DNA from: Chloroflexota bacterium
GTDB lineage: Bacteria; Chloroflexota; Dehalococcoidia; Dehalococcoidales; UBA2162
Length of the DNA: 64,000 nucleotides
Assembly: GCA_016190825.1 (NCBI GenBank)
Contig: JACPPV010000023.1
Coordinates: 139,476 to 203,475, forward strand
Direction: 5' to 3'
How positions within the stretch are numbered: position 1 is the stretch's first letter; each line of letters opens with the position of its first letter. Shown here piece by piece: positions 37,128 to 62,069 of the stretch. The translations under genes and the position numbers were made by a program. Below the pieces are notes generated by a model. The model was given only the letters and a program-made list of their open reading frames with translations, was not told the origin of the DNA and searched no databases.

Positions 37128-37474
37128 CGGTTTACCTTGTAGTCCTCTACCGCGAGCAGGGTTGCCCCGTCCCGCGATACGGTGACCGTGACTTTCGTAA
37201 TATTGTCGGCGATAGGACTGAAATCGATAAAAACATCGTAGCCTGGCTCACTGACGGCGGAATATGTTCCTGTTTCGTTATAAGAAACGGCCTTAATCGC
37301 CTCCAGGTTTGTGCGCGCCAGGCTCTGTGCTGTGGCATCCTGACCGGCGACGCGGACCGCCAGTGAGCCGGTTGAAAGGGCTGAAATTGCGGCAACTACG
37401 GCGGTCCCCAGTATGGCGACCGCAATCAAAGCCTCAACCAGGCCGGCCCCCCTTTCCTGCCAGACCAGGTTCAT
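37124..37474 (-). CDS. Minor pilin (PilV-like)
   Basis: MNLVWQERG/AGLVEALIAVAILGTAVV. 4-nt overlaps on both sides. Confidence 0.7.
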   Translation of the reverse strand: MNLVWQERGAGLVEALIAVAILGTAVVAAISALSTGSLAVRVAGQDATAQSLARTNLEAIKAVSYNETGTYSAVSEPGYDVFIDFSPIADNITKVTVTVSRDGATLLAVEDYKVNR

Positions 37475-38679: not shown

Positions 38680-38774
38680 AGTTTTTCCCCAATCTGATCG
38701 AAGCAGGGGTTTGCCGCAGGCTTATTTCCAGGGAGAACAAAGACGCCTTTAATCGCGGTCAAGCAAATCAAAAA

Positions 38775-40532
38775 TCAGTTAACTGAAACCACGTTGCGGA
38801 GCACCTCATACAGGGTAGTTGTACCGGCTTTTGCCTTGAGCATCCCGTCATGCCTCATGGTAATCATTCCTTCCCGCAGCGCCTGATTCCTGATTTCGCT
38901 GGGGCTTGGCTGAACCGACAACATTCGCCTGACCTCTTCGCTGACCTCCAGGCACTCAAAAATCCCGATTCTTCCCAGGTAACCGGTGCTGGCGCAATTA
39001 TTGCAACCCGGCCCGGTATGAAAGACTGTGCGCTCTTCCCCCGTTTCTTCCCGGTAGGCGATGCATTCTTCTATGGGTGGCTGGAAGAGGGTCTGGCAAT
39101 GGGGGCAAATACGGCGGATAATTCGCTGGGAGACAACGCCCAGCAAAGTCGCCGCGATGAGATATGGCTCGATACCCAGGTCCATCAGCCTGAAAAATAC
39201 CCCGATGGCATCATTGGCGTGGATAGAGGAAAGCACAAGATGCCCCGTGAGGGCGGCCTGAATCGCCACCCTGGCCGTCTCGCTATCACGGATCTCGCCT
39301 ACCAGGATCACATCTGGATCATGGCGCATGATTGTGCGCAGTCCTGAAGCAAAGGTAAGACCCGCTTTGGGATTGACCTGCACTTGATTGATATCCAGGA
39401 ACCGGTATTCTACCGGGTCCTCAATGGTCATAATGTTAAGGCCGCTCCGGTCAAGCTGGCTGATCGAGGCGTAAAGGGTGGTGGTCTTACCTGAGCCGGT
39501 AGGACCCGAAATAAGTATCATGCCAAAGGGGTTCTTCAACATTTGGCGATATTTCTTGAGGGCTTCGCTCTGCAAACCCAGCTCAGCTAGAGAGATAAGG
39601 GCCAGGGATTTGTCCAGGATGCGCAGCGTCATTCTTTCGCCGTAGAGCGTCTCTGTGGTAGCCACACGGATATCTATGCTCTTGTCCGCCACCTTGATCG
39701 AGAGTTGTCCATCCTGCGGGCGCCGTTGCTCAGCAATATTCATTCCGGCCATAATTTTTATCCTGGATAGGAGCCGGGCATGGACATTTAACGGTAAGGA
39801 GAACGCTTCGCTGAGGACGCCGTCTATGCGAAAGCGGATGCGCAGTCTATCTTCCTGGGGCTCAATGTGGACGTCCGAGGCGCGGTCGCGGACTGCCTGC
39901 GTCACGAGCAGGTCAAGGATTTCGACGATCGGGGTCCGGGCAAGGATTTCCGGAGTGACCGGCGCATCCAGTTTCGCCGGAAAAGGAGTCTCAAAGTAGC
40001 TGACCTGTTTCTGGATCTCCCCGCCGGCACGGTAGCTACGGTCGATGGCGGCGCGAATATCGGTCGGAATACCCAGCGCCGGTTCCACCCTCATTTTACA
40101 GAGTACCTGAAGATCATCTATGGTCCGAACGTCATCAGGATCAGCCATCACCACGACCAGGGCATCACCAACGATATCCATCGGGATGAGGGTCTGCTTT
40201 CTGGCGATGTCTTCAGGAACCAACTGCAGGGCGCGGAGCTGGACGACGTGTCTGCCGAGGTCTATGAACGGCACATTTAGCTGAATGCTTTGCACCATTC
40301 CCAGGTCCTCGGGGGTAATCAGCTTCTGCTCTACCAGCACCTCACCGAGTCTTTTCTTTTGCTTCTGCTGTAGCTTGCTCGCATAATCGAGCTGCTCGGG
40401 TGTGATGAACTCCGCCTCGATTAGCGCCTGGCCCAGGTTCTTTCTCTGGGTCCCGTTACCGCTACCATTCCTGGGTTTTTCCTCTTCCATATTTGCTTCT
40501 CCCCACTGGATCCGGGCATTGCCTTTTGACAT
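38775..40532 (-). CDS. pilB: Type IV pilus assembly ATPase PilB (GspE family)
   Basis: 585 aa. Walker A GPTGSGKTT, Asp box, Walker B ILVGEIRD, His box, tetracysteine CPHC..CNNC. N-terminal T2SSE_N region. GGGGAGG RBS. Confidence 0.92.
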   Translation of the reverse strand: MSKGNARIQWGEANMEEEKPRNGSGNGTQRKNLGQALIEAEFITPEQLDYASKLQQKQKKRLGEVLVEQKLITPEDLGMVQSIQLNVPFIDLGRHVVQLRALQLVPEDIARKQTLIPMDIVGDALVVVMADPDDVRTIDDLQVLCKMRVEPALGIPTDIRAAIDRSYRAGGEIQKQVSYFETPFPAKLDAPVTPEILARTPIVEILDLLVTQAVRDRASDVHIEPQEDRLRIRFRIDGVLSEAFSLPLNVHARLLSRIKIMAGMNIAEQRRPQDGQLSIKVADKSIDIRVATTETLYGERMTLRILDKSLALISLAELGLQSEALKKYRQMLKNPFGMILISGPTGSGKTTTLYASISQLDRSGLNIMTIEDPVEYRFLDINQVQVNPKAGLTFASGLRTIMRHDPDVILVGEIRDSETARVAIQAALTGHLVLSSIHANDAIGVFFRLMDLGIEPYLIAATLLGVVSQRIIRRICPHCQTLFQPPIEECIAYREETGEERTVFHTGPGCNNCASTGYLGRIGIFECLEVSEEVRRMLSVQPSPSEIRNQALREGMITMRHDGMLKAKAGTTTLYEVLRNVVSVN

Positions 40533-40636
40533 AATCTATACCTCCCCAGGGTCAGGAGCAATCACCCAAAAGAATGATTCTAGGATGAAAAAAGCTGGCG
40601 AGTACCGAATTGCATAACTAAGCTCTCTCATGCGCG

Positions 40637-40695
40637 CCGTTCATGGTGAGCTTGTCAAACCATGGGCATGCCCTTCGACAGGCTCAGGGCGAACG
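40637..40695. repeat. 59-bp palindromic repeat (CCGTTC...GAACGG family)
   Basis: ccgttcatggtgagcttgtcaaaccatgggcatgcccttcgacaggctcagggcgaacgg. Confidence 0.8.
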
Positions 40696-40815
40696 GTTTT
40701 ATTGTGATGCCTCTTTTGTATAACTAGGTACCCGGTACTAATCCGCTGTCAAACTTTCAAAAGAAAGGTACAATCCCCATTGGGACGGACTTTCAAATCA
40801 ACCATCCCCGCATCG

Positions 40816-41193
40816 TCATCCCCCCTTCTTGGCCAGCAAGTTTCCCACCCTTCTCACAATTTCCGAGGGGTCTGCCGGCTTGGGCAGGTAATCATCGGCC
40901 CCCACTTTGCGGCCAGTGGATATATCCGTCTCTTGAGCCTTGGCTGAGAGCATCAGGACGGGAATAATGGCAGTCTGAGGGTCAGCCCGCAAGCGGTGAC
41001 AGACCTCAAAACCGTCCAACCCGGGCAGCATGACATCAAGAACGATGAGGTCAGGCTTTTCGTCCCGGGCCTTTTTCAATCCCTCCATCCCGTTTGAGGC
41101 GGTTATCACCTGGTAACCTTCGTGTTCCAGCGTGTAACCCACAAGCCTCCGGGCGCCGGGGTCGTCTTCGACTATCAAAATCTTGCTAGCCAA
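40816..41193 (-). CDS. Single-domain response regulator (CheY-like receiver)
   Basis: TTG start overlaps the kinase stop (aTTGgcTAG). KILIVEDD, phospho-acceptor [13 protein letters not shown], conserved Lys PKP. No output domain. Confidence 0.8.
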
Positions 41194-42763
41194 TGGAGCT
41201 TCCTTCAGGCCGATCTTTCTGGTCGAGGCCTTCCGGGGGAACATATGGAGGGAGGGTGAAGCTGAAGATGCTGCCCTTGCCCAGCTCACTTTCCACCCAG
41301 ATACGACCGCCGTGTCTTTCGACAATCTGTCTTGTGATGTACAACCCCAGCCCCGCCCCACCGCGGGCCATGGGGTCGCTTGCTCGATAGAACCTTTCAA
41401 AAAGATGCGGCATCGCCTCCGGAGGAATGCCGATGCCGTGGTCAATAACCTGTGCTTTCAGCATACCATCGCTGACCGCCGCCCTTACGACGACGTCACT
41501 GCTGTTATCACTGAATTTGATGGCATTCCCGAGCAGATTCGTCAGCACCTGCCTTATCCGGTCCTCGTCTCCGTAAACGTCTGGCAGCGGCGCTTTAATA
41601 TCCAGTTTGATAACAATACCTTTTTCGTGGGCTAAGCTGAAAAATCCCGCCGTTACCACGCGGATTAGCCCTTCCATCATCAGCGGTCCCTTTCGTATCT
41701 TGAACTGCCCCGCTTCAATAGACGAAACATCAATCAGGTTATTGACCAGTTTGCTGAGATGCTCGGCCTGCTGGTCTATAATGGAGAGGAACTCTTTCTG
41801 GGTCTCAAGGTCGGGGACTTTGCCCTCCAGCATAAGTTTGTTGAAGCCAGCTATGGAGTGAAGCGGGGTGCGCAGTTCATGGGAAATGTTAGCCACGAAC
41901 TCGGACCTCATGCGGGCCAGTTCTCTCTCCTGGGTAATATCATGGATTACCTGTATTTCTCCCAAATGCTGGCCAGCGTCCTCGATGACTTCCGACGGCG
42001 AAAGCGTCAGAACCCTGGTTTTCGGTCTTTCCAGGGACAGCATTTCCACCGGCCGCTCTACCGTGTTCAGAAAGGCGAGCAATGGCTGTAGCTCTTCCGG
42101 GGACTTGCCAATCACCTCCGATGCCTGCAAGCCGGTCATACTCTCCAACGCCGCGTTAAAAATGGTAACCCGGCGGTTCTGGTCGACCGCTATCAAACCA
42201 TCGGACATGTGACTGATGACCCTCTCCAAGTTTTGCTTCTCCATCTTCATCTGCTCAAAAAGCTGCCCATTCCTGATGGCCGCGGCCACCTGCTCGGCCA
42301 TCATAGCCATAATTTGCCTCCGGCTGTCGTCAAAAGCGTTTTCCGAAACAGACCCTACGACAAGCGCCCCTATTGTTTCCTTTCCAACATCCAGGGGCAG
42401 ACAAAGAAAGGACTTCATATCTGTATTGTCCCCGATGGTATTCCCAACATCCCAAAAGCTGCTTTCCACTGTGATAGCCGTCTTGTCCAAGCGGGCGAAA
42501 TCTCCCGGAAGGGCATTCATCGCATCAAGGATTTTCTCAGTGAATCTGCTGGCGATGGCTTCCCCGCCGGGACGAGGTACTTTTACGGACAGTTTCCAGG
42601 GCTGATGATGGTCAGCGATATCCCTCACCAAAATGCCGGCAACATGGGAGGGAGCAACCTTCAGAAGGTAATCGAGAGCAAGATTAACCGCCCGGCGGCT
42701 GTCTATATTGGCACCCAGATCCTTTGAAAATTGGTAAAGCAGGTTGGCTTCCCCTTCCAGCAT
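41186..42763 (-). CDS. Cytoplasmic GAF-PAS sensor histidine kinase
   Basis: 525 aa. H-box SHELRTPL, N box LLGNAIKF, G1 DHGIGI, G2 GGAGLGL. Confidence 0.85.
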
Positions 42764-42884
42764 CGCTTTTTATCTCCGCGAATCCAATTTGAAAGATGCA
42801 GACCCATTGAAGCGCTTATAGCCCCCAACTAAAAGGGGGCTATGCCTCCAGCTCCTGCGGTCAGGCACGATTTGATGATTACTA

Positions 42885-43229
42885 CTATTGCTGGGCTGTT
42901 ATTGTCCCGTTTTGAGACCAGGTGTACTCATATTTGCTGTAATCGGTACCAACCGGGCGTAAATAGATACTGAAAGGGTCAGTTCCTGCAATAGCTCTTG
43001 GCGTGCCAGAATACTCAGTAATAGTGGTAAGGTTGTTTTTCGCCATGTAGGCATCTATCGCCGTCTGCACAGCATTTTTCTCAGCTAACATCGCTTCGGT
43101 TTTCCCGGTACCAATGAAACCGGTCAATGCCGCCACAGCGACTGCGAGCAGCACGCCTATAATCCCCACCACTATCAGCAGCTCTATCAGTGTGAACCCC
43201 TTTTCTTCCCGGCGAACCATTTTCAGCAT
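42885..43229 (-). CDS. Type IV pilin (short, probable major subunit)
   Basis: 114 aa. MLKMVRREEKG/FTLIELLIVVGIIGVLLAVAV. Confidence 0.85.
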   Translation of the reverse strand: MLKMVRREEKGFTLIELLIVVGIIGVLLAVAVAALTGFIGTGKTEAMLAEKNAVQTAIDAYMAKNNLTTITEYSGTPRAIAGTDPFSIYLRPVGTDYSKYEYTWSQNGTITAQQ

Positions 43230-44742: not shown

Positions 44743-44925
44743 TCACTCGGACGAACTTTTCCCGCCGGTACCGACTGGCACCGGACTTTCAGTAGACTTA
44801 GCAAGTCTCTTCAGCTCAATCCGGTAGGCGCATTGCAGACATTGCTGATGCCAGGTAGACATGTCCTGCTGTATGAACATGTCCCCTCCGCATCGAGGGC
44901 AACTCTTCAATTTCCACATCACCAT
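44743..44925 (-). CDS. Small zinc-ribbon protein (hypothetical)
   Basis: MVMWKLKSCPRCGG..(16)..CLQC. GAGGGGGTGAGG RBS upstream of the internal Met. The 5' part of the listed ORF is not used. Confidence 0.45.
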   Translation of the reverse strand: MVMWKLKSCPRCGGDMFIQQDMSTWHQQCLQCAYRIELKRLAKSTESPVPVGTGGKSSSE

Positions 44926-45280
44926 TTGCCTCACCCCCTCATCATTGGCAAGATGTAATTCATTTACAAAGTATTTTAGCCAGATGTGGCAGACAAATCT
45001 GTGACTTTTGTCCCAATAGGAAAAGCAAGCCAGATGCGATACCACGATATTTAGTATGACTTTGATCCTGAAATCAATGCCTGGATAAACTGACAAACAT
45101 CTAAAATGTTACGCCGTTAAGGCGTGGCAACCCAGTGCCGGTGGAACCTCCGCCGAGAGTGTGTCTGAGTAATGCTTGATATTGTAATAATCTGCCTATT
45201 TGTCTGAGCAATAATACACATACGCTTGCTGCCATGATTTGTGCTTTATAAATTATGGTGAGTGTCGGTCATTCCAAATA

Positions 45281-46384
45281 TTACTTGGGCACACTCTCAG
45301 ACACATTGAAAGGGGCGCTGATGGTGGGGGCCAATCCGAGGCTGGTGGCGGTCAATGCGTAACGAAAACCAGCGAGATCGATGGACAAATGTGCCCACGT
45401 GGCCACGCCATTCACGGCATTGACCGTCTTTGTGCCGGACAGTATAGCCCCGCCTGTGCCGGTGCCGGGAGTGATAGCCAGCGTCACGGGTGCCGTGGAA
45501 GTGGTCACTGTATTCCCGTAGGAGTCCAGTACGTTCACTTTGATCTCCTTGGTGAGGGTTGATCCAGCCTCAAATCCAGCAGGGACTTTGGTGAAGGCAA
45601 GCTTCGTTGCCGCGCCGGGCGTCACATTGAAGGAATTGCTAATGGCTGAAGTCAACCCACGACCGATGGCTGCCAGGCTGTAGTGAGACCCAGCCAAACG
45701 GATCGAGAGGTCAGTGAACGTGGCTACCCCGTTTACCGCGTTAACCGTCGTTGTTCCGTATAGCGTTGCCCTGTCACCGCTGACAATTAGCGTCACCGGT
45801 GCCGTAGAAGTGGTCACAGTGTTGCCATTAGCATCTTCTATTCTCACTACCGGTTGGACGGGCAGGACTGACTCAGCCGTAGCCTCAACAAGCTCCGTCA
45901 CAAAAACGAGTTTCATTGTCTCGTTAGATGACCCTTGGGCCAGTAAGGAAGTTCCTGTTGGTACGGGTGAAAATCCGAACGGCGTGGGAGAATCAGTCTT
46001 TGTTCTTCTATTACCGGAAGCGACCAGAATGGCCGCTAGTGTTAGTACCACTGTGAGAGCGATTAATAAATATTTCTTCCTCGTTGATACCTGAAAAAAC
46101 TGATTTCCAGCAGTCTGCTGAGACCGCCCGGCGGGTCTTACCGTGGAAGGGGTTTCTGCCGGACGGTTCTCGTCAGAAACGGCCTCAAGGTCTTCTTCCA
46201 CGAAGCGGGCAGCCGGACGTAAGCCTCTCCACTCAAATCTCACCATGTACCAGAAGCCACTTGAGCGCTTCGAAGGAGGTGAATAACTCGAAGGGCTATC
46301 ATCCACCATCCCAATTTGACCTCTATACGGTGAATGGGAAACCAAACGGACTTTTACTCTATCGCCTTTATTGAACTTTGGCAT
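45281..46384 (-). CDS. Single-pass membrane protein: N-terminal KOW/SH3-like domain, TM helix, two Ig-like repeats
   Basis: MPKFNKGDRVKVRL..GQIGMV, TM helix YLLIALTVVLTLAAILV, then two ~90-aa repeats (..NGNTVTTSTAPVTL..GT.TVNAVNGVAT...LSI..AG.Y.L.A). The start overlaps the upstream stop by 17 nt. Confidence 0.6.
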   Translation of the reverse strand: MPKFNKGDRVKVRLVSHSPYRGQIGMVDDSPSSYSPPSKRSSGFWYMVRFEWRGLRPAARFVEEDLEAVSDENRPAETPSTVRPAGRSQQTAGNQFFQVSTRKKYLLIALTVVLTLAAILVASGNRRTKTDSPTPFGFSPVPTGTSLLAQGSSNETMKLVFVTELVEATAESVLPVQPVVRIEDANGNTVTTSTAPVTLIVSGDRATLYGTTTVNAVNGVATFTDLSIRLAGSHYSLAAIGRGLTSAISNSFNVTPGAATKLAFTKVPAGFEAGSTLTKEIKVNVLDSYGNTVTTSTAPVTLAITPGTGTGGAILSGTKTVNAVNGVATWAHLSIDLAGFRYALTATSLGLAPTISAPFNVSESVPK

Positions 46385-47894
46385 ATATTTCCGGCCCCCC
46401 GCCAACAAAAATCCTGTTATATAGGTCTACCCCGTAGCTGGTGTCCAGTGGCTCACCATTAGTCAGCCTGTAAGTTCGGGTTCCGTCCGTCTTTCTTTCA
46501 GCACGCAAGAAAAGAGCCTCATTCGTCCTTGCTTCGTAGAGCTCGTGCGCAAACTGATACAGATGAGATACGAAGATTACCTTGACCTGCCTCTCTATCA
46601 TAGCAGCTACTATCTGTCTCGCAATCTCTGATCCTTCTATCTCGTTCGTGGCGGCAAACGTTTCGTTAAGCAGAACCAGAGAATGGGCGGACAAATGGTC
46701 TGCAATTTGACTCATGCGGCTAAGTTCATCATCCAATTTGCCGCTTTCCATAGAGACGTCTTCCTTGCGCTTAAAGTGTGTGAAAAGCCCTGTGCACAAA
46801 TTGGCACAAAAAGAACGGGCTGGAACAAACATCCCGCAATGCATCATCATTTGTGATAGGCCTACGCTCCGCAAAAAGGTCGTCTTTCCACCCTTGTTAG
46901 CTCCGGTCACTATGATGAGACTCTTGCTATCGGCATTGATGTCGTTCGCTACCACCTGTTGTCCCATGCTCAGTGCCAGGGAAATGTCATAAAGCCCCTC
47001 GGATGAGAATATGCGCTCGCCCACCGCGGCAACCACAGGAAAGCACGTTGGCTCACCCAATTCGGCAAGGCGCTCATGCAGATTGACACAGCCCAGGTAG
47101 AATGCGAGTTCGGTCTGCAATGTAACAAGGAAGTTGAGAACGTGGTCTACCGATTGGGCAGTGGCATTGGCCACTGAGTTGATCCCCCTGTTCCTAAGCT
47201 CGCCCAGTTTCCTGATCGCAGTCTCATCTTGGTCATTGATACGGAAGGTGTATGCTCTTGGCCCCCTGCTGAATACCCGTTGGATCCATTTCTTCTGGTT
47301 GTTTGATTTGAGCAATACGTAGTTGCTGCCCCGGTTGCCTTTCCCTAACTGTGCGCCGATCAGAACTTCATCTCGCAAACTCAACTCCCAAAGATGCCCC
47401 TCAATTTCTTCCAGGTATTCGCTGCTAATCTCTCCCTTGATTCTTGCGAAGAACTCTTTAAAACCCTCCGATTCAAATTTACCGGCATCTTGATCAGCAA
47501 CGCTCTTCAGTGTTTTCAGCGTACCCAGGAATACTTGTAAACTTTCGACGGCACGGAAGAGAATCGACCATGGGGAGTTGGCAAGGCCTGCGGCCCAGTG
47601 GGACACTTTTCTGTCTCCAATAACGCTAACCGCGAGCTCGTACAGTCTCTTTACCACAAAGGGATTCTTCAGACAATCCCTGAGGACTGCCTGTCGGTAA
47701 AATATGACGTCGGGTCCGTTACCGAAGCCTGACAGTAGCGCGCTCTGTGCCACTCGGTGTAGGAACTCGTCGTCATTGGCCATGGCGCTGGAAATGGGAG
47801 CAAGTTGGAGGTCCTGGATCAACTCCGGGCCGTTCCAAGGCGCATTTTGCTCCAGATCGAAGTCTCGATCCTTGTACATCAGGTAGACTTTCAC
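46368..47894 (-). CDS. MutS-domain-V-only ATPase, paralog B
   Basis: 508 aa. Walker A GANKGGKTT, Walker B LVLLNETFAATN (Asn in place of Asp), FVSHLYQF. No MutS domain I or Smr recognisable. GTG start shares 1 nt with the upstream stop (taGTG). Confidence 0.8.
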   Translation of the reverse strand: MKVYLMYKDRDFDLEQNAPWNGPELIQDLQLAPISSAMANDDEFLHRVAQSALLSGFGNGPDVIFYRQAVLRDCLKNPFVVKRLYELAVSVIGDRKVSHWAAGLANSPWSILFRAVESLQVFLGTLKTLKSVADQDAGKFESEGFKEFFARIKGEISSEYLEEIEGHLWELSLRDEVLIGAQLGKGNRGSNYVLLKSNNQKKWIQRVFSRGPRAYTFRINDQDETAIRKLGELRNRGINSVANATAQSVDHVLNFLVTLQTELAFYLGCVNLHERLAELGEPTCFPVVAAVGERIFSSEGLYDISLALSMGQQVVANDINADSKSLIIVTGANKGGKTTFLRSVGLSQMMMHCGMFVPARSFCANLCTGLFTHFKRKEDVSMESGKLDDELSRMSQIADHLSAHSLVLLNETFAATNEIEGSEIARQIVAAMIERQVKVIFVSHLYQFAHELYEARTNEALFLRAERKTDGTRTYRLTNGEPLDTSYGVDLYNRIFVGGGPEIYAKVQ

Positions 47895-49423
47895 TATTTT
47901 ATTCGCTCCTTCAGAGACTTATACGTCAGGCCATACTTTTCGGCTATTGCCGCCGCATAGGAGAGCCCGTATGGGGGCCTCCTTACGATCTTGTACGTAC
48001 GCAGTGACGGATTTTGGGGGGCCACCATGCTAACCATGCTCACCGCCTTGTCGCTGTATGATGCTAGCTCCTCGACAAACGTTACCCACACACAAAGCAA
48101 GTCTAACTGGCTTAGACTTTCCATCACCTTTTTACTTAGGAAGACAGCATCTTTTAGCGTCGTGGAAGTCAAAATCTCGTTAGCGATGACGATGCTGCGC
48201 GACGTAGCCTCGTCGAGAATGCCATGGATCCTCGTGAGATCATCTTCCAGTTTACTTCTCAGGTCCTCAACGGTTTCTTCTTTTTCGAAATGGGTAAATA
48301 GCCTGTCGAACAAGAAGAGTTTTGCTTCCTTTCCCGGCACAGGGCAGCCTAGGTTGGCAAGATAGTGCGACTGTCCAAAGATGCGCGCAAAAGTCGTCTT
48401 TCCTCCCTGGTTCGGCCCAGAGACCACGAATATGCGCTCCTTGCCCTTCATGAAAAAGTCATTGCATACAGTAGGCCTGCCTTCGGGAATAAGCTTGTTG
48501 GCCAAAGCTAGATCAAACCCTTCCAGCTGGGAGATTTCTTTGTTTGTCTCTGAGACTTCAGGATAGCAGAGTTTGAGCCCTGCCGCCTTGATGGAATTAA
48601 TAAATTCCAGATAGGCGACATAAAACTGTATTTCGCGGTCAAAATCAGCGATTTTCTTATCAAGAAAGTCTACGTTCTTTTCACAAAAATCATACAGCTC
48701 TTCAAATACTTCAGGATATAATTGAGCCACCGCCTCAAGAATCACTGCCTCCATGTCGTTCATGTCTGCCGGCTCAGAAAACGTGATCCGGTAATCCCTA
48801 GCTCCTCCCTGTTTGAACCTCTCGAATGTCTTCTCCACTTCTGCGCTGTAGTCCCCCTTAGACTCGCGCTTTCGGACGGTGAAGTTCTTTCCTTTGATAT
48901 GTACGCAGTAGTCCACTCCAGCTAGATTGGCCCCCACTCGCTGTGTTTCTGCTGCAAAAGACGTGAAAGGCTCTGATTTTACGTAGTCTCGTAAGTATTC
49001 GCGGAACGCCAGGAACCCCCGCGATTTCAGATCTGCTGCCGAAAGGTCACGATAGAGAGAGCTGACTGCGTGGCAGTAGGCATCCACTGCGTCCAGGAAC
49101 CACCTTTGCTTCTGGAGCTGGTAGGAAAGCCTTTCACTCCGCGCGAGGCAATCACGCATAGTGTGCATCCGTTGCGCAAAGGCCGCTATGATCCTGGCAG
49201 GCTCTTGTCTTTCAAGTTCCTGCATTACTTCGTGACGGTATTCGATGGCGCCGATACGTTTCAGAGCAGACCAGAAGAAGGGCCTCAGATTGTATTCTTC
49301 CTTGCCCAAGGTAACCGCTTCCGCAATCTGGTCAAGATTCAGATCAGCAAAAAAGCCCGGCAGCTCCGGTTTTTTCATTGGCCTGTCTTCAGGCCTCTCG
49401 AACAAAATGCTTTCAAAGCTCAT
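47894..49423 (-). CDS. MutS-domain-V-only ATPase, paralog A
   Basis: 509 aa. Walker A GPNQGGKTT, Walker B IVIANEILTSTT, WVTFVEEL (no His). The ~330-aa N-terminal helical region has no mismatch-binding motif. Confidence 0.8.
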   Translation of the reverse strand: MSFESILFERPEDRPMKKPELPGFFADLNLDQIAEAVTLGKEEYNLRPFFWSALKRIGAIEYRHEVMQELERQEPARIIAAFAQRMHTMRDCLARSERLSYQLQKQRWFLDAVDAYCHAVSSLYRDLSAADLKSRGFLAFREYLRDYVKSEPFTSFAAETQRVGANLAGVDYCVHIKGKNFTVRKRESKGDYSAEVEKTFERFKQGGARDYRITFSEPADMNDMEAVILEAVAQLYPEVFEELYDFCEKNVDFLDKKIADFDREIQFYVAYLEFINSIKAAGLKLCYPEVSETNKEISQLEGFDLALANKLIPEGRPTVCNDFFMKGKERIFVVSGPNQGGKTTFARIFGQSHYLANLGCPVPGKEAKLFLFDRLFTHFEKEETVEDLRSKLEDDLTRIHGILDEATSRSIVIANEILTSTTLKDAVFLSKKVMESLSQLDLLCVWVTFVEELASYSDKAVSMVSMVAPQNPSLRTYKIVRRPPYGLSYAAAIAEKYGLTYKSLKERIK

Positions 49424-49809
49424 GGAGTGATCCTTATATGCAAGTTACCGTGAAGCAGATGGCCATTGATTCCGTTCGTGCCTTTGGAGAACAGAAAGGC
49501 CTTGTCGGCCTGTGAAAGTTTCAGTCTCTCCATTTGGTATTGCCGGCCATGCTATTGAGCGTCAGCGCCCGACTGAATTATACCAAGAACTTTTTATGCA
49601 GACAAATTTCAGGTTACTGGACAAACCCTATAATCGGCGAATTGCTAGCAGCTTCTCCGAGCAATGGATGGATTACTGGAAATTAGGACTTTCAAGAGTC
49701 GCTCTCTTTTTGCCCCTTTCCGGCTCCTACATAGTAGAGGGGTATAAAGATGGCAGGGGCGAGCTTGGTTCTGCAATATCCGGACTGGCAGGCGGGGAGG
49801 ATACGGCTG

Positions 49810-49997
49810 CTAGCCACTACGAAAAGCCCAAAGGCACTTCGAGCCTTCCGCGATGCTGTAACCATGGTCGATAACCAGCCCTACCGCCTCACCCTTGAAT
49901 TCTGCAGTGTATGTTTTCTTCTCCTGCTCGGTCAACTGCACACCTCCTGGCGCTCATTTTACTCGACTCTTCTTGAGGTGTCCGTTCTATTAGACCA
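49810..49997 (-). mobile_element. IS3-family remnant: left end plus truncated orfA (HTH)
   Basis: (V)QLTEQEKKTYTAEFKGEAVGLVIDHGYSIAE matches the IS3 OrfA HTH, then degenerates to a stop at 49810-49812. Candidate terminal repeat TGGTCTAATAGAACGGACACCTC ends at 49997. No DDE orfB is present. Confidence 0.45.
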
Positions 49998-50385
49998 CAT
50001 CAGGAGGACACCCGGCTGGAGAACAGTCGCTGCTTGTTCTTACCCTTGCGTAAACCGCGTTTACCCATCCCCCAGTATGGTTTGCCAGCTTTGATAGCCG
50101 TTTTTCCCCTTTGTAGCAGTTGTTGGAGAGGACAGGCAGATGGCTGGTGGCCGGCCGCCGACCTGGTTAATTAGCCAGCTTGTGCGGGTTGAGTTTGACA
50201 AACCTAACCAGAAAAATGTAGCTTTATATAAAGCATGTCTTTCTCAAATTAAGCAGCGGTGGACAGGGCAAGGGATGTGGGAAAAATGCATCAGAATCGC
50301 CGGAGTCCGGGTCTTTAAACGGTGATGGCTGGCGCCTTCTGTTTAGGCAGACTTAACCGGACAGGTTAGTGAAGATGGGGATGCG

Positions 50386-50871
50386 ATGATGCAGCTACGA
50401 AGGATGTCACCCATTATGGGAATGGTAACATTGTTCTTTGTCACTGGTCTGGTGGTTCCTGTCTTTATGGCCTGCGCTTCTCCGCAGGAGCCGGCATCCC
50501 CTCCGCCGCTCCCTCCTTTAGGTGGAGACAAGGGAAATCCGAAGCTGAGCTCTCAGCTTAACCAGCTTGTCCAGGCAGAGAGCCGAGGAGAGGCTGTGTC
50601 GTTTGCGCAGCAGCAGAACATCGTGCTTGTTGACAGGAAAGTAAGGGTAGTTATAGAAACCCTACCTGGTCAGCTCGAGATGGCAAGGCAAGCTGTTGCC
50701 AGTGTTGGGACAGTGGAGGCAAGCGATGAAGGTCTGCTTCAGGCGATTGTGCCGGTTAGCAGCCTCAATTCCCTGGCTGAAGAGCCCGGCATCAAGTTTA
50801 TCCGGCTTCCCATGCTGCCGGTGCCCGGTGCCAAGGATGATAATGCTCAGCAGTTGAAGACGGGGGAGTGA
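50386..50871 (+). CDS. Lipoprotein paralogous to the subtilase N-terminal propeptide (I9-like)
   Basis: 161 aa. Signal peptide with lipobox VFMAC. Residues ~50-145 align with the N-terminal region of the next protein (NPKL.S.LN...VRV.IET......RQA....GTVEASD..LLQ......L..LA..PG..F.R.P). ATGA overlap with it. Confidence 0.65.
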   Translation: MMQLRRMSPIMGMVTLFFVTGLVVPVFMACASPQEPASPPPLPPLGGDKGNPKLSSQLNQLVQAESRGEAVSFAQQQNIVLVDRKVRVVIETLPGQLEMARQAVASVGTVEASDEGLLQAIVPVSSLNSLAEEPGIKFIRLPMLPVPGAKDDNAQQLKTGE

Positions 50872-53800
50872 TGAAACTACTCAAATTAGTCCAGCTATTG
50901 GTCGTCGCTGCCCTGTTATTGAGCGCATCCCTTTCTTACTCGGAGCCATTACCTGTTTCCGCCGCCGATCCTGAACCGCAGCCAGTACAACTTCCAAAGA
51001 ACGCCAACCCGAAACTTGATTCGCGGCTGAATCGTGTGCTCAAGGAGCAAAACGACAAAACGACGTCCCGTCCAGCCCAGCAGAATCCCGATGAAGTTGG
51101 GACTGAAACTGTGCGCGTGATCATCGAGACCTCAGCCAACCAGATGGGGCAGGTCCGGCAGGCGGCATCAGGACTCGGCACTGTTGAAGCCAGCGACGGC
51201 AACCTGCTACAGGTGAACGTGTTGGCGGGACAACTGGCGGCGCTGGCAGACCTGCCGGGCGTGCGCTTTGTCAGGACGCCTTATAGTTTTGTGGAGGATG
51301 TGGTCAGCGAGGGCGTGGCCGTCATTGGCGCTGATGTATGGCAGAACGCCAGCTACAATGGCAGCGGTGTCAAGGTAGGCATTGTTGACGGCGGATTTGC
51401 CGGTTACACGACGCGGCAGGCTGAGGGCGAGCTGCCGGCCAGCATCACTACCTGGTGGGCACCAAGCATCGGGAATGAGGGAACAGAAAAGCACGGCACG
51501 GGAGTAGCTGAGATTGTTTATGATGTTGCTCCCGGCGCCCAGTTCTACCTGGCGAACGTGGATACAGAAGTCGACCTTGGCAATGCGGTCGACTGGATGA
51601 TTGCCCAGGGCGTCAATGTCATTTCGATGTCCCTGGGCTGGTATCCCGGGGGTCCGGGCGACGGCACAGGTCCGATAGCTGTGATAGTAAACAGGGCACG
51701 CGCCGCTGGCATCCTCTGGGTGAACAGCGCCGGAAACTCGGCACGAGAACATTGGCAGGGGAATTTTGTTGACACCGACGGCGACACGTGGCATGAATTC
51801 AGCCAGCCCTCCCCATTTGATGAAAACCAGTCCATCTTTGTTCAGACTGGAGCCTCCATAATCGTTTTCTTGAAATGGGACGACCCCTGGGGAAGCTCGT
51901 CCAATAACTACGACCTCTATTTGACTGATAATCAGAGTATCATCCGCGCTGCCTCTGAAGATGTTCAGAATGGTAACGATGACCCCGTGGAAGCTCTCCA
52001 GTTTACCGGTGCGTATACCGGCTTCTACAGAATATGGATCAAGAAGGTCGGCAGCCCGGCAGTAAGAAACTTCCACCTGTACAGCCTTGTCCAAACCCTG
52101 GAATACCAGGTGGCATCAGGCAGTCTGACTGTGCCCGCCGATTCGCCAAATGTGATGACGGCTGGTGCGGTTTACTGGAACAACGCGGGAACGATCGAAT
52201 CTTTCAGCTCGCAGGGACCCACCACTGATGGCAGGACCAAACCCGATATTGTCGCGCCGGATGGCGTCAGTACGCGCGCTTACAGCCCTGGAACGTTCTC
52301 CGGCACTTCCGCTTCTGCACCTCACGTGGCCGGCGCGGCGGCGCTGGTGAAGCAAGCGTATCCATCATATGACGTCGTCCAGATACAGGCCTTCCTCGAA
52401 GGCAGGGCAGTCGACCTCGGTGATGCCGGGAAGGATAATGTATTCGGCAGCGGCAGGCTGAGCCTCGGCTATATGACTCCGCTAGTGACCACCGATGACG
52501 CCACCACTGTCAGTCATAACTCAGCCAGCCTCAGCGGAAACCTGACTTCTCTGGGCACGGCAAGCTCAGCCAACGTCACTTTTCAGTGGGGGGGAGAGTC
52601 AGAAAACTATACTGCCAGCACTATCATTCAGACAATGAATACCACCGGCAGCTTTAGCTCCGATTTAACCAGCCTGTCGGCGAATACCACCTACTATTTC
52701 CGGGCGAAGGCGAGCGGGCAGGGCGATGCGTATGGAGTCGAGAAGAGCTTCACTACGTTAGCGATACCCGTTCCCACCGGGCTGGTCAAAATCTCCCTAG
52801 ACAATAACCCTTTTACCGCCTTCAAATGGAACGCGGTTGATAACGCTACTGCTTATCAAGTCATGGTGGACTCCGGCAACTGGACGGATATCGGCAACCG
52901 GCTGACCTACGTCCAGCCCACCATCTTGGGCAAAGGCAGCCACACCTTCCAGGTGCGGACGAAAGACCTGTGGGGCAGTGCCAGTTCGGCAGCCAGCTTG
53001 AGCTTCAATGTGACCGTGACGGCGGACCTGGCGAATACAAAGATCGCTTTCGTTTCAAACCGTGATGGGAACATGGAAATATACGTGATGAACACCAATG
53101 TGACTGGAGTGAACCGGCTCACGACGGACACCTCGCACGATTCTTATCCATCATGGTCGCCTGACGTGAGCAAGATTCTTTTTACACCCAGTCGTGACGG
53201 ACAACAAGAGATTTACATGATGAACAAAGATGGATCCAACCAGGTACGCCTGACCAATTCTCTTGGCTCTGACTTCGAATCGCGATGGTTTCCAGACGGC
53301 CAGAAGATTGTCTTTACATCTAGCCGAGATAACAGTTACGAGATTTATGTGATGAATGCTGATGGAAGCGGTCAAACGAATCTGACAAACTACCCAAATC
53401 CGAATCTCGCTTATAATCAGGGAATAGACTGGCAACCAGCGGTATCCCCGGATGGCACCAGAATTGCTTTTGTTTCAACCAGGGGAAGCGTCCCTGGAAC
53501 ATCCCAAAATCTAGATATTTACCTCATGAACGCAGACGGGTCTGATGTTGAAAGGTTAACTAGCCATGAGAGCAGTGACGAGAACCCATCATTTTCGCCC
53601 GACGGCAAGACGGTCGCCTTTAACTCGCATCGGAACACGTATTCAGAGATTTACCTGATGGATGTAGATGGCACTAATCAGCGAAGGCTAACCTACAGTG
53701 CGAGCAGCCAGACCGGCCACAATTTGAGACCGATCTGGTCTCCTGATGGCTCCAAAATACTGTTCGAAAGAGCAACTAATGGCGTCCCGCGAATCTATTC

Positions 53801-56798
53801 CATAAATCTGGATGGCACCGGTGAAACAAATCTTACCGACTCCATGCCCGGGGACAACTTCTTTCCGTCATGGTCCCCCTTCCTAACTCCACCAACCGTA
53901 ACTACCAATAATGCCGCGAATATCACCTACAGCTCGGCAGTCCTGAGCGGCAACCTGACATCGCTCGGCACGGCAAGCTCAGCCAACGTCACTTTTCAGT
54001 GGGGGGGAGAGTCAGAAAACTATACTGCCAGCACTATCATTCAGACAATGAATACCGCCGGCAGCTTTAGCTCCGATTTAACCAGCCTTTCGGCGAACAC
54101 CACGTATTTTTTCAGGGCGAAGGCTGCCGGTGACGGAGCAGCGTATGGAATCGAGAAGAGCTTCACCACTTTGCCCACTACCCCGGTGGTGAGCACGGAT
54201 AATGCCACGGAGGTTACTTTTAGTTTCGCAATATTGAACGGCACCTTGACCTCATTCGGTACGGCAAGCTCAGCCAATGTTTCCTTCCAGTGGGGGTTGA
54301 ATTCGGAAAACTATACCGGTGAGATTTCTTCGAACTACACATCGATGAACTCTACCGGCGTTTTCAGCGGTAATCTGACCGGTCTCAGTCCGGCCACTAC
54401 CTATTATTTCAGAGCCAGAGCGGTCGGTGATGGCGCCGGCTACGGCGAAGAAAGAAGCTTCACGACCGCGGTTATTCCCTCCCCATCGGTTATCACCGAT
54501 GAGGCCACCAACATTACCTTTACCTCTGCGCAACTTAATGGAAACCTGACCTCTCTGGGCACGGCATCTTCAGTTAATGTATCTTTCGAGTTAGGCGTCA
54601 CTTCTGGTAACTTCACCGGCTATACCGTTCCTCAGACAGTGAATGCCACTGGCAGTTACTCGTTTGCCCTGGGGAGCCTGTCTCCCAACCAGACTGTTTA
54701 TTTCCGGGCGAAGGCGGTCGGCAATGGCACCAGCTACGGTGAGGAAAAGAGCTTCACCACACCAGCGGGGACAGCGCCATCAGTGACAACTGATAATGCC
54801 ACCAATATTACCCATGATTCGGCTTGGCTAAATGGTAGCCTGGCATCATTGGGCACGGCTGACTCCGTCAATGTCTCTTTCCAGTGGGGAACAAGCCCAT
54901 TAACCTATACTGCCGAGACTACTGCCGAATCAATGAATGTAACTGGTGATTTCTATTTCATCCTAGACAGTCTATCCGCTAACACAACCTATTATTTTCG
55001 GGCGAGAGCCCTTGGACATGGCACATTTTCTGGAAGTGAGAAGAGCTTCACAACGCTGCCCACAACCCCGCCATCCGTTACTACTGAGAATGCCAGCGAT
55101 ATCAGGTTTTATGATGCTCGCTTAAACGGTAATCTATCTTCCCTGGGTACAGATGCCTCAGCCAATGTCTCCTTCCAATGGGGAATTAGCTCTGACAACT
55201 ACACGGTTGAGACTCCTGTACAGACAACAAACATTACCGGCCCCTTCAGTGCCAACCTTACCGGATCCCTCTCTGCTAACACCACCTACTATTTCCGTGC
55301 AAAAGCAGCCGGGCAGGGCACTGGCTATGGCGAAGAATTGAGTTTCACTACTTTGCCCACCACTCCGCCCGATGTCATTACGGGAAACGCCACCAATGTG
55401 AGCTACTTCTCAGCGACTCTGAGTGGCACTCTGACGGAACTCGGCACGGCGGCCTCAGTCAATGTCACCTTCCGGTGGGGGACGAGTTCAGGAAATCTAA
55501 CCTCCAACACTTCTGTCCAGACAATGAATGCTACCGGTCTGTTCTCCCTTGACCTGGGCGGCCTGTCAGCCAACACAACCTACTACTATCGCGCCCGGGC
55601 GGAGGGCCACGATTCTGACTCCGGCAGCGAAAGGAGCTTCACCACCCTGGCTACAACTTTACCAACCGTGACTACTCTAGGCGTTGCCAGTGTTACATCG
55701 AGCGGCGCCAGACTGAGCGGGAATCTCACTTCTCTGGGTACGGCTGACTCGGTCAATGTCTCTTTCCAGTGGGGAACAAGCCCGGAGAGCTATACTGCCG
55801 AGACGGCTATACAACCAATAAATGCAATCGGGACTTTCCAGGCTGACGTGGCGCTTTTGGCGAGTACTACCTACTATTTCCGCGCTAAAGTCGCCGGGCA
55901 TGGCGTCGCGTTTGGCGATGAGATGACCTTCACAACATCGGAACCACCGCCCCCATCCAGCGGCGGTGGAGGTGGCGGTGGGGGTGGGGCGCCATCTGGC
56001 ATCATAGCGCTTGGTGTAAACGGCTTCCTGGGAGTAGGTCCACTCATCAACGCTATCACTGGCGTTACTCTGAATGCTGTGAACCTCATCTCTACGGATG
56101 GCAAGGCTTCGGTTGCCATCATAGCCAATACCACCATGCTCATGCCGACCGGACTGGCGGTCACCGGCCTTTCTGCGATTGTGGCTGAGCCTCCGGCTGA
56201 GCCGTCGCCCGGGGGCGCCATCATTCTCAACTATGAGTTCGGGCCCGATGGGGCTAGGTTTGACCCGGCGCTTACGATTGTGATGAGCTATGCCGACGAC
56301 CAGCTACCATCTGGGTTTTCAGAAGCGAACCTGTACCTGGCTTTCTGGGATGGCTCGGAGTGGGTACAACTGGCAAGCATTGTCAATCCAGAGGACAATA
56401 CGGTCACCGGGAAAGTGGAGCATTTCACCAGTATTGCCTTGATTGCGGGAAAACCGGCTCAACCTGTTTCGGTAGTGCAACCACCACCTTTTACTCCAGA
56501 TCCGACGCCTGATCCGGCTCCGGCGTTTTTATCACCTCAACCGTTGACTCCGGAACCTCAGCAGCCGTCGGCTGTTGAGCCCGCTCCTGCCCCGGCGCCC
56601 GAAGTACCACCGGTGCCGGATAGGGAAGCGACTTCGGAACCGATTGTGGGTGAGCCATCGCCTTCCGAGGCGGCGCCCATTCCTACCGGCGTCTTCTCTT
56701 GGTGGTGGATTATCGGTGCGGTCATTGGCGTGGCGATAATCGGCGGCGTAGTATACAGAGTACTGCGGTCAAAGGTGAGGCTGACACCCGAAAAATAA
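50868..56798 (+). CDS. Giant membrane-anchored S8 subtilisin-like protease with FN3-like repeats and a TolB-like beta-propeller
   Basis: 1976 aa. Signal peptide, propeptide, catalytic triad D (VGIVDGG), H (HGTGVAE), S (GTSASAPHVAG). One ~97-aa repeat, one FN3 domain, six PD40 blades (..EIYVMN..). Seven more ~97-aa repeats, a Gly run, a C-terminal globular domain, a Pro-rich stalk and a TM anchor WWWIIGAVIGVAIIGGVVY. Confidence 0.9.
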   Translation: MMKLLKLVQLLVVAALLLSASLSYSEPLPVSAADPEPQPVQLPKNANPKLDSRLNRVLKEQNDKTTSRPAQQNPDEVGTETVRVIIETSANQMGQVRQAASGLGTVEASDGNLLQVNVLAGQLAALADLPGVRFVRTPYSFVEDVVSEGVAVIGADVWQNASYNGSGVKVGIVDGGFAGYTTRQAEGELPASITTWWAPSIGNEGTEKHGTGVAEIVYDVAPGAQFYLANVDTEVDLGNAVDWMIAQGVNVISMSLGWYPGGPGDGTGPIAVIVNRARAAGILWVNSAGNSAREHWQGNFVDTDGDTWHEFSQPSPFDENQSIFVQTGASIIVFLKWDDPWGSSSNNYDLYLTDNQSIIRAASEDVQNGNDDPVEALQFTGAYTGFYRIWIKKVGSPAVRNFHLYSLVQTLEYQVASGSLTVPADSPNVMTAGAVYWNNAGTIESFSSQGPTTDGRTKPDIVAPDGVSTRAYSPGTFSGTSASAPHVAGAAALVKQAYPSYDVVQIQAFLEGRAVDLGDAGKDNVFGSGRLSLGYMTPLVTTDDATTVSHNSASLSGNLTSLGTASSANVTFQWGGESENYTASTIIQTMNTTGSFSSDLTSLSANTTYYFRAKASGQGDAYGVEKSFTTLAIPVPTGLVKISLDNNPFTAFKWNAVDNATAYQVMVDSGNWTDIGNRLTYVQPTILGKGSHTFQVRTKDLWGSASSAASLSFNVTVTADLANTKIAFVSNRDGNMEIYVMNTNVTGVNRLTTDTSHDSYPSWSPDVSKILFTPSRDGQQEIYMMNKDGSNQVRLTNSLGSDFESRWFPDGQKIVFTSSRDNSYEIYVMNADGSGQTNLTNYPNPNLAYNQGIDWQPAVSPDGTRIAFVSTRGSVPGTSQNLDIYLMNADGSDVERLTSHESSDENPSFSPDGKTVAFNSHRNTYSEIYLMDVDGTNQRRLTYSASSQTGHNLRPIWSPDGSKILFERATNGVPRIYSINLDGTGETNLTDSMPGDNFFPSWSPFLTPPTVTTNNAANITYSSAVLSGNLTSLGTASSANVTFQWGGESENYTASTIIQTMNTAGSFSSDLTSLSANTTYFFRAKAAGDGAAYGIEKSFTTLPTTPVVSTDNATEVTFSFAILNGTLTSFGTASSANVSFQWGLNSENYTGEISSNYTSMNSTGVFSGNLTGLSPATTYYFRARAVGDGAGYGEERSFTTAVIPSPSVITDEATNITFTSAQLNGNLTSLGTASSVNVSFELGVTSGNFTGYTVPQTVNATGSYSFALGSLSPNQTVYFRAKAVGNGTSYGEEKSFTTPAGTAPSVTTDNATNITHDSAWLNGSLASLGTADSVNVSFQWGTSPLTYTAETTAESMNVTGDFYFILDSLSANTTYYFRARALGHGTFSGSEKSFTTLPTTPPSVTTENASDIRFYDARLNGNLSSLGTDASANVSFQWGISSDNYTVETPVQTTNITGPFSANLTGSLSANTTYYFRAKAAGQGTGYGEELSFTTLPTTPPDVITGNATNVSYFSATLSGTLTELGTAASVNVTFRWGTSSGNLTSNTSVQTMNATGLFSLDLGGLSANTTYYYRARAEGHDSDSGSERSFTTLATTLPTVTTLGVASVTSSGARLSGNLTSLGTADSVNVSFQWGTSPESYTAETAIQPINAIGTFQADVALLASTTYYFRAKVAGHGVAFGDEMTFTTSEPPPPSSGGGGGGGGGAPSGIIALGVNGFLGVGPLINAITGVTLNAVNLISTDGKASVAIIANTTMLMPTGLAVTGLSAIVAEPPAEPSPGGAIILNYEFGPDGARFDPALTIVMSYADDQLPSGFSEANLYLAFWDGSEWVQLASIVNPEDNTVTGKVEHFTSIALIAGKPAQPVSVVQPPPFTPDPTPDPAPAFLSPQPLTPEPQQPSAVEPAPAPAPEVPPVPDREATSEPIVGEPSPSEAAPIPTGVFSWWWIIGAVIGVAIIGGVVYRVLRSKVRLTPEK

Positions 56799-56988: not shown

Positions 56989-57002
56989 ATCACCAACAAT
57001 TG

Positions 57003-57205
57003 AATAGCGTAGGTGTCGGTGTCCCGGCGCTTCCAGTTTGACTGGGAAGATCCGGGGCTGAAAAGGGAAGCCTGTCAAAGTCAGGCGCGGTCCCGCCGCT
57101 GTAGCAGGGACGAAACCCGGGATAATGCCACTTTTCCGATGAATCGGGAGGGGAAGGCGCCGGGAAGTAGGTTGAACTGAAAGCCAGAAGACCTGCCGAC
57201 AAGTT
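57003..57205 (+). promoter_or_regulatory. Cobalamin (AdoCbl) riboswitch aptamer
   Basis: Conserved core ..gctgaAAAGGGAAgcctgtcaaagtcaggcGCGGTCCCGCCGCTGTagc.., B12 box aatGCCACTtttcc, and ..GGGAAGGCgccgg. Confidence 0.85.
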
Positions 57206-57241
57206 ACCTCGTGGAAAGGGCCTTATCGGGAAATGGTAAAT

Positions 57242-58107: not shown

Positions 58108-58111
58108 AAAG

Positions 58112-60737: not shown

Positions 60738-60742
60738 CGCTG

Positions 60743-62068: not shown

Positions 62069-62069
62069 T

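Follow-up and report, generated by a model that had tools for sequence, protein, structure and literature searches.

A gene for a MutS-type ATPase, a second one joined to its end and a third gene, for a membrane protein, joined to the end of the second: what would MutS-like proteins do in such an arrangement, when neither carries the domain that recognizes mismatches? The three genes lie in a stretch of 64,000 nucleotides (nt), here called the window, from contig JACPPV010000023.1 of a Chloroflexota bacterium of the order Dehalococcoidales (assembly GCA_016190825.1). A preliminary description of this DNA, made from the letters alone, had taken them for an uncharacterized three-gene module. We find that the first two genes, A and B, very probably represent the published pair MutS4A/MutS4B, a family which, with little room for doubt, belongs to the fluoride-riboswitch regulon, and that the third gene, C, is real but restricted to one clade.

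Gene order and coupling

The genes are arranged head to tail on the minus strand, and the coordinates and overlaps that had been described for the three open reading frames (ORFs) were all reproduced (lengths in amino acids, aa):

47894-49423 (-): gene A, MutS4A, 509 aa, ATG start
46368-47894 (-): gene B, MutS4B, 508 aa, GTG start
45281-46384 (-): gene C, 367 aa when read from the conserved ATG at 46384; the ORF listing extends to a TTG at 46408

The stop codon of A (TAG) and the start codon of B (GTG) have one base in common (taGTG junction at 47894), and a GAAGGAG Shine-Dalgarno sequence precedes the start of B. Gene C, read from the ATG at 46384, overlaps the end of B by 17 nt.

A and B probably are MutS4A and MutS4B

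Pfam searches detected the MutS_V domain alone in A (aa 333-497, E 3.6e-18) and in B (aa 327-491, E 2.3e-21); neither protein matched MutS_I to MutS_IV, Smr or KOW. This agrees with the earlier view that the N-terminal regions carry no MutS_I to MutS_IV or Smr domain detectable by profile hidden Markov models (HMMs), and that the two proteins form a MutS-type ATPase pair distinct both from the MutS1 of mismatch repair and from the Smr-bearing MutS2. They are paralogs, as was also proposed, with 24% identity over 372 aa (E 5e-29). Likewise, their scores against the MutS2 equivalog TIGR01069 (68-75 bits, cut-off 400) and the MutS1 equivalogs (72-76 bits, cut-offs 480-642) were far below threshold.

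The MutS4A/MutS4B subfamily was defined by a MutSac-only signature, by the adjacency of the two genes and by the overlap of the 4A stop with the 4B start (Lin, Nei and Ma, 2007; NAR 35:7591; PMC2190696). These authors recorded it in five bacterial and two archaeal species, among them Thermoanaerobacter tengcongensis, a few other bacteria, Thermoplasma and Ferroplasma, and its function was unstudied (Lin et al., 2007; PMC2190696). Since all three features are present at our locus, and A is 63% identical to Thermoanaerobacter proteins, we assign A and B to this subfamily with high confidence on sequence grounds; what had been called uncharacterized is thus, as far as the pair is concerned, a published one. 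The Thermoanaerobacter proteins compared (P0086 and that of locus L001) align with A over the full length at 62-63% identity, the exact accession of Lin et al. lying outside this comparison.

The family is widespread. Full-length homologs of A with 60-83% identity occur in Dehalococcoidia, Moorella, Thermoanaerobacter, Poribacteria and others, and when one genome per species was scanned, at least 597 genomes of many phyla, including an archaeon, encoded a relative. From these distant relatives we retrieved a sample of 80 loci (L001-L080), covering many phyla and one archaeon. A homolog of B begins 2-5 nt past the last aligned residue of A in every one of them; the stop/start coupling of the window pair is therefore the published hallmark of the MutS4 family. 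Because adjacency and coupling are universal in this sample, a heterodimer of A and B, as put forward in the preliminary description, is the natural reading of the pair. Annotation of either gene as 'DNA mismatch repair protein MutS' should be avoided.

One aberrant copy was seen in a complete Dehalococcoidales genome (CP070832, locus L087), where a MutS4B cut to 216 aa (7530-8177) is followed by an AAA_16 gene; this pair is likely a decayed copy.

MutS4 genes belong to the fluoride-riboswitch regulon

Reportedly, Baker in 2012 placed mutS genes in the fluoride-riboswitch regulon. Across the first 11 loci tested, Rfam identified 19 fluoride riboswitches; three of these immediately precede A, one each in L001, L021 and L032. 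A covariance model built from these 19 and then run on the 80 distant loci (E<1e-3) returned 154 matches, with at least one in 71 loci. In 62 loci a riboswitch is located on the same strand within 2.5 kb upstream of A, and in 43 it is on the coding strand no more than 300 nt from the A start. The same holds for more distant metagenome loci, 47 of 67 of which contain a fluoride riboswitch, their short flanks notwithstanding.

To survey the neighbours, ORFs were called in the 80 loci and clustered, representatives were annotated by Pfam, and adjacency was counted. The following genes were found near the pair (number of loci out of 80):

dynamin-family GTPase: 40
MFS transporter: 21
enolase: 21 (adjacent in 5)
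tandem DUF190: 16
Mrp/NuoL-like: 16
USP: 14
Na+/H+ exchanger: 13
ABC ATPase: 13
CrcB: 12
His phosphatase: 9
hydrogenase large subunit: 8

A review of the fluoride-riboswitch regulon (PMC11139923) describes this same gene set, and 'DNA repair (mutS)' was named among the genes controlled by the crcB motif (Weinberg et al., 2010; PMC2864571). Riboswitch control and the company of fluoride-tolerance genes point to a family role in the fluoride-stress response rather than in mismatch repair or phage defence. We regard the membership of the MutS4 family in this regulon as very probable. MutS-like genes are among its most frequent and least understood members.

The commonest neighbour of the pair, the dynamin-family GTPase, is ~560 aa long, and its C-terminal part, rich in Cys, weakly resembles DUF6062. 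It is encoded within 3 kb in 35 of the 80 loci, and in 14 it is directly adjacent on the same strand, either upstream of A (e.g. L019, L024, L026, L046) or downstream of B (e.g. L025, L027, L037, L063, L077). Often it stands behind a fluoride riboswitch shared with the MutS4 pair. This GTPase is not known to count among the members of the fluoride regulon. A pair that is universal and coupled, and often linked to a dynamin-like GTPase, sharpens the question of what MutS4 does.

One Dehalococcoidales lineage lacks the riboswitch

No fluoride riboswitch was found in any of the about 20 loci of the clade to which the window belongs (A identity ≥ 64%). The riboswitch is thus absent from this lineage; its operon has a promoter and leader of its own, and has gained a third coupled gene:

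49577-49605 (-): sigma-70-type promoter, TTGTCT-17-TATAAT with a TG extended -10; 10 of 12 positions match, the best in 45000-50400
49424-49570 (-): 5' leader, ~150 nt long; its terminator-like hairpin (49497-49511) leads into a U-rich stretch

Loci L081 and L084, among others of the clade, conserve the promoter box ahead of A, and the leader is partly conserved among relatives (L081, L084, L089, L092 and L094-L098 make up the promoter/leader set). Searches for structure in the leader gave no Rfam family (E ≤ 10), a folding z-score of -1.0 and, by RNAalifold on 11 leaders, 0 pairs. A faint likeness of the leader (GAUGA ... GCUGAUAA) to the fluoride aptamer was considered as well; it scores nothing with the fluoride model, and the claim was dropped. 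One lineage has swapped out the riboswitch and added an SH3-like partner, which offers constructs to test.

Gene C encodes a clade-restricted membrane protein

The AlphaFold2 (AF2) model of C has an overall predicted local distance difference test (pLDDT) score of 78, rising to ~95 in its immunoglobulin (Ig)-like sandwiches, and is divided as follows:

46175-46384 (-): SH3-like domain, a small five-stranded barrel, aa 1-70
46013-46084 (-): transmembrane helix, aa 101-124
45620-45913 (-): Ig-like domain 1, aa 158-255
45299-45604 (-): Ig-like domain 2, aa 261-362

Disordered linkers connect the barrel to the transmembrane helix and the helix to the Ig part. Foldseek paired the Ig domains with those of invasin InvE, InvD, FdeC and GH2 proteins (E 1e-6 to 1e-5; Pfam matches remained below threshold). 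The single membrane helix and two Ig-like repeats described earlier were thus recovered in the model. A profile search of the PDB with the N-terminal domain returned PsaE and the Spt5 KOW domain only at E 0.4-0.5.

The public annotation of C (P0124, 211 aa) begins at M157 and so drops the N-terminal domain and the transmembrane helix. As both are conserved in 33 homologs, the 367-aa form is the true product, and the public record is mis-started. Full-length homologs of C (354-370 aa, 47-73% identity) all come from Dehalococcoidales or Chloroflexota assemblies, several of them from contigs that also encode a homolog of A. The complete A-B-C triad was seen with differing flanking genes in L081, L084, L088, L092, L097, L098 and L101. 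Two other clade members, L086 and L090, have a 71-aa ORF coupled to B that corresponds to the first 70 residues of C (MPKF.KGD.V.V...WYMVRF.WKG...), and no third gene follows the pair in L089 and L100. Given the SH3-only ORFs of L086 and L090, the conserved partner is probably the small, adaptor-type SH3-like domain, the transmembrane and Ig part being an add-on that some clade members do without. Whether the domain contacts A/B directly is, judged by sequence, an even call.

Outside this clade C was not found. In the 80 distant loci, tblastn gave 0 matches, and an HMM of the N-terminal domain run on six-frame translations gave none below E 0.16. The idea of the membrane protein as a general partner therefore fails, C being confined to one Dehalococcoidales subclade, and the conservation of the triad as a neighbourhood does not extend to the distant pairs, all of which stand without C; this is part of what the preliminary description itself had said would speak against its reading. 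C is a genuine but clade-restricted third gene.

An exhaustive search for the N-terminal domain yielded 28 clusters at 50% identity. It is a rare, unnamed family of ~65 aa, found mostly as stand-alone proteins of 61-93 aa and also in tandem arrays (P0382, P0386).

Within the clade, tRNA genes adjoin the A-B-C module in L092 (57-130), L095 (1508-1578), L097 (4562-4646) and L098 (7264-7348). The flanking genes are different at each locus, a sign that the module may move or occupy variable regions.

A predicted MutS2-core-like fold with asymmetric ATP-site motifs

The preliminary description had credited A and B with domain V only and with no clamp-like region. At the level of HMMs this is true; for the fold predicted for A it is not. 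The AF2 model, built on an alignment of 59 sequences (pLDDT 72.9, predicted TM-score 0.74), consists of long high-confidence helices of the lever/core type (aa 57-168 and 223-279), a Lys/Arg-rich beta insert of low confidence (aa 172-213) where the clamp of MutS sits, and the ABC ATPase (aa 289-509). Foldseek aligned the model with MutS, MSH2/3/6 and the MutS2 core of the PDB over ~520-570 columns with a probability of 1.00; the score against the MutS2 core 7vuf was TM 0.58 (target-normalized), and the Bacillus subtilis MutS2 7qv3 was also matched. The structural alignment to MutS starts at domain III. From it, the N-terminal 280 residues of A would represent MutS domain III and contain a short insertion where domain IV, the clamp, is located, and the predicted fold of A is that of domains III-V of MutS/MutS2. 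B, by its sequence a full-length paralog of A, would be built likewise.

The Walker A motifs named in the preliminary description were found in both proteins, and the ATP sites have the following features:

48392-48418 (-): Walker A of A, GPNQGGKTT, aa 336-344
46878-46904 (-): Walker A of B, GANKGGKTT, aa 331-339
48170-48187 (-): Walker B of A, which reads N-E (N415-E416)
46656-46673 (-): Walker B of B, which reads N-E (N410-E411)
48065-48085 (-): H-loop position of A, occupied by Phe (F449)
46551-46571 (-): H-loop of B, His retained (H444)

These residues are family traits: N415, E416 and F449 are all invariant among A proteins, as are E411 and H444 among B proteins, where N410 is nearly so (≥ 90%). 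In Escherichia coli MutS the Walker B Asp coordinates Mg2+, and the D693N substitution weakens metal binding and slows switching (PMC2857095). Because Asn replaces this Asp in both proteins and B alone retains the H-loop His, the pair may have asymmetric ATP sites, one competent and one degenerate, with unusual handling of Mg. The asymmetry and the Asn at the Mg-coordinating position suggest concrete mutants to test. Fluoride poisons nucleoside triphosphatases (NTPases) as Mg-fluoride complexes. A link between the Walker B Asn and fluoride is speculation.

What the pair may do under fluoride stress

The explanation that we prefer, with a little more confidence than doubt, is that MutS4A and MutS4B form a fluoride-response ATPase pair, an ATP-driven clamp or remodeller that was rewired together with C in Dehalococcoidales. 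Coupled in translation, the two would form a heterodimer of MutS-type ABC ATPases that is presumably obligate and asymmetric; in most bacteria and some archaea their operon is switched on by a fluoride riboswitch and lies amid fluoride-tolerance genes. Each subunit is predicted, from the model of A, to combine the lever/core of MutS with its ATPase and with a short, basic insert that resembles a clamp, which gives a MutS2-core-like fold. Neither has a mismatch-recognition, connector or Smr nuclease domain. During fluoride stress the pair would clamp or remodel a nucleic-acid or nucleoprotein substrate. Candidates are DNA, or stalled ribosomes as for MutS2, either of which could suffer when fluoride poisons Mg-dependent NTPases. 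In Dehalococcoidales the SH3-like domain may serve as a recruiting or tethering adaptor, and the membrane anchor with its two external Ig-like domains would tether the ATPase at the membrane.

The least firm part of this proposal is the substrate. MutS2 acts on branched DNA or on collided ribosomes and is recruited by its KOW and Smr domains (PMC10897456). Since the lever and clamp architecture appears to be retained and MutS2 is the closest solved relative, a nucleic acid or nucleoprotein seems the most likely substrate for the pair; as a mechanism, such a clamp, based on the predicted fold and on analogy, is tentative, and we hold it with less confidence than the proposal as a whole.

Several points weigh against the fluoride-response clamp. 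Throughout the window no fluoride riboswitch (RF01734) was detected, whether at the Rfam gathering score, at Rfam E ≤ 10 or with the custom model with filters off, and homologs of CrcB, enolase, DUF190, the dynamin-like GTPase and the remaining regulon genes are absent from it as well. As both the riboswitch and the fluoride genes are missing, the fluoride role of the family may not carry over to this Dehalococcoidales lineage. In the model of A, residues 188-217 of the clamp-like insert have pLDDT values below 50. The N-terminal domain of C, previously described as KOW/SH3-like, agrees with that fold class as a small five-stranded barrel, but no KOW profile matched it significantly (PF00467, 3 of 10 members, best E 0.19), and MSSS, the MutS2-associated SH3 domain (PF20297), stayed below threshold (2 of 10 members, best E 0.13). 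The domain also occurs away from MutS4: it is fused behind DnaJ J-domains in P0362, P0371 and P0378 (once also with PilZ), and L171 has two tandem copies (446-640 and 676-870) on a contig without MutS4B. Finally, the searchable literature yielded no experiment on the function of MutS4A/B, or on MutS and fluoride.

Among the alternatives, a classical role in DNA metabolism survives best, although it too is improbable. MutS4A/B would then be a recombination or repair clamp that is needed as fluoride damages DNA or disables MutS1, in line with what Lin et al. (2007; PMC2190696) and Weinberg et al. (2010; PMC2864571) had proposed and with the MutS-like fold and the basic insert at the clamp position. 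In contrast, A and B have no domain I or II, no MutL-interaction region and no nuclease, and their closest solved core is that of MutS2, a protein that in B. subtilis acts on ribosomes. This explanation overlaps the one we prefer and differs from it only in the substrate.

Alternatively, the pair could be a protein reactivase that uses ATP to pry open enzymes locked by Mg-fluoride-phosphate, such as enolase and NTPases, in parallel to KamC. A mutS-family gene is indeed present in lysine-fermentation clusters (PMC3149608), KamC (508 aa, of similar size) is the fourth-ranked NCBIfam match for both A and B, and enolase or His phosphatase genes occur in 21 and 9 of the 80 MutS4 loci. However, the KamC scores of 50.1 bits (A) and 70.4 bits (B) are far under the 300-bit cut-off and concern the ATPase region only, enolase is adjacent in just 5 loci, and the fold still has the MutS lever and a basic insert resembling the clamp, as is typical of proteins that bind nucleic acids. 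We consider a reactivase unlikely.

Unlikelier still is envelope-coupled signalling, in which the Ig ectodomains of C would sense an external or surface cue and the SH3-like domain would regulate the A/B ATPase, replacing the riboswitch. The topology of C, the tight coupling implied by the 17-nt overlap with B, the preservation of the triad while its flanks change and the missing riboswitch of the same clade are all in keeping with it. Against this, the linkers of C are long and disordered, C has no signalling domain, and in two clade members it consists of the 71-aa cytoplasmic domain alone; as this form has neither the transmembrane helix nor the Ig domains, the ectodomain seems dispensable.

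A long shot, going beyond the explanation we prefer, would be that the pair rescues stalled nucleoprotein complexes under fluoride stress, for example ribosomes or NTPases that Mg-fluoride has frozen, and that the Asn in place of the Walker B Asp makes it insensitive to fluoride. In Dehalococcoidales it would have been rewired by the loss of riboswitch control and the arrival of a dedicated SH3-like adaptor, in the window anchored in the membrane and bearing Ig ectodomains, which would recruit or regulate the ATPase at the envelope. If so, the leader that these riboswitch-less loci conserve would be a novel regulatory element.

The least supported of the rivals, and a very unlikely one, is a module for anti-phage or anti-plasmid nucleic-acid surveillance with the heterodimer as sensor and C as effector or anchor: ABC/SMC-like ATPases are common among defence systems, an insertion sequence (IS) remnant lies nearby, the flanks vary among relatives, and PADLOC gave weak P-loop matches (mad8, PtuA, LmuB; E 0.0015-0.04), but these are not significant and are limited to the Walker A region, the proteins lack a nuclease or any other effector domain, C is missing from all 80 distant loci, and the neighbours there are fluoride-tolerance genes under fluoride riboswitches. 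With PADLOC-DB v2, the best match among A, B and C was to mad8 over the P-loop (E 0.0015), C having no match; the defence role considered in the preliminary description thus comes down to P-loop noise, with fluoride genes as neighbours elsewhere and unrelated housekeeping genes in the window.

Genes around the module

On the side of A, the module had been described as bounded by an IS3 remnant, which can be placed as follows:

49813-49935 (-): IS3-family OrfA remnant, helix-turn-helix region (HTH_Tnp_1 E 7e-4, below the Pfam cut-off)

The OrfA-like stretch is there, and its support is weak. Lying upstream of the A promoter, this IS3-like remnant is a boundary marker outside the module; the region containing it had no plasmid match. 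On the other side, the zinc-ribbon ORF described earlier is present (44743-45096). The repeat elements said to flank the block turned out to be no repeat family; we found a single 24-nt imperfect inverted repeat downstream of C (45155-45178 / 45275-45298), with no further copies within the window.

Further downstream (37471-43229, minus strand) are type IV pilus genes, encoding a PilB-like T2SSE protein, a PilC-like T2SSF protein and a prepilin with an N-methylation motif, and beside them a GAF-PAS histidine kinase gene; these are unrelated to the module. The opposite flank is formed by an S8 protease gene and a cobalamin-riboswitch operon. The protease is a secreted subtilase (Peptidase_S8) of 1976 aa (50868-56798, plus strand), whose translation, read by eye, has beta-propeller-like repeats, a C-terminal transmembrane anchor and ~10 copies of a ~95-aa repeat (..SSANVTFQWG..YYFRAKA..). 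A 161-aa ORF just upstream resembles its propeptide-like N terminus. The cobalamin riboswitch (57000-57214, plus strand, 105.8 bits) precedes an operon (57364-63587, plus strand) for CobS, CobT (DBI_PRT), a methyltransferase-DUF2284 fusion and two radical-SAM proteins, one with a B12-binding domain, which looks like a lower-ligand or cobamide-remodelling operon. A tRNA-Sec gene is located at 17599-17691 (plus strand, 67.8 bits).

Comparison with known systems

The window pair resembles the MutS4A/MutS4B proteins of Lin et al. (2007; PMC2190696) in its ~500-aa size, in the C-terminal MutS ATPase as the only detectable domain, in the adjacent, overlapping paralogous genes and in the patchy distribution. 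It differs by the third coupled gene and by doing without the fluoride riboswitch of most family loci. Similarly, it is of one protein family with the mutS genes of the crcB-motif regulon, of which 71 of 80 loci have the riboswitch, beside CrcB, enolase, Na+/H+ antiporter, USP and DUF190 genes, whereas the window and the about 20 related Dehalococcoidales loci have neither the riboswitch nor those neighbours.

MutS2 (Thermus thermophilus core, 7vuf; B. subtilis ribosome-collision sensor, 7qv3) is the best PDB sequence match for A (E 8e-18) and shares the lever/core, clamp and ATPase layout without domains I and II; a small KOW/SH3-type domain serves recruitment in MutS2 as well. However, MutS2 forms homodimers, its KOW and Smr domains belong to the ATPase chain itself, and its Walker B reads D-E, while A and B, presumably a heterodimer of paralogs, have no Smr, carry N-E, and find their SH3-like domain on a separate, membrane-anchored protein. 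From MutS1 the pair is set apart by its lack of a match to the mismatch-binding domain I and the connector domain II. KamC (NCBIfam NF052383), the MutS-like reactivase ATPase of lysine 5,6-aminomutase, is comparable in length (~508 aa), in its C-terminal MutS-type ATPase and as an example of a role outside DNA repair; A and B reach 50-70 bits of the 300 required, are similar to it in the ATPase alone, and reside in an unrelated genomic context.

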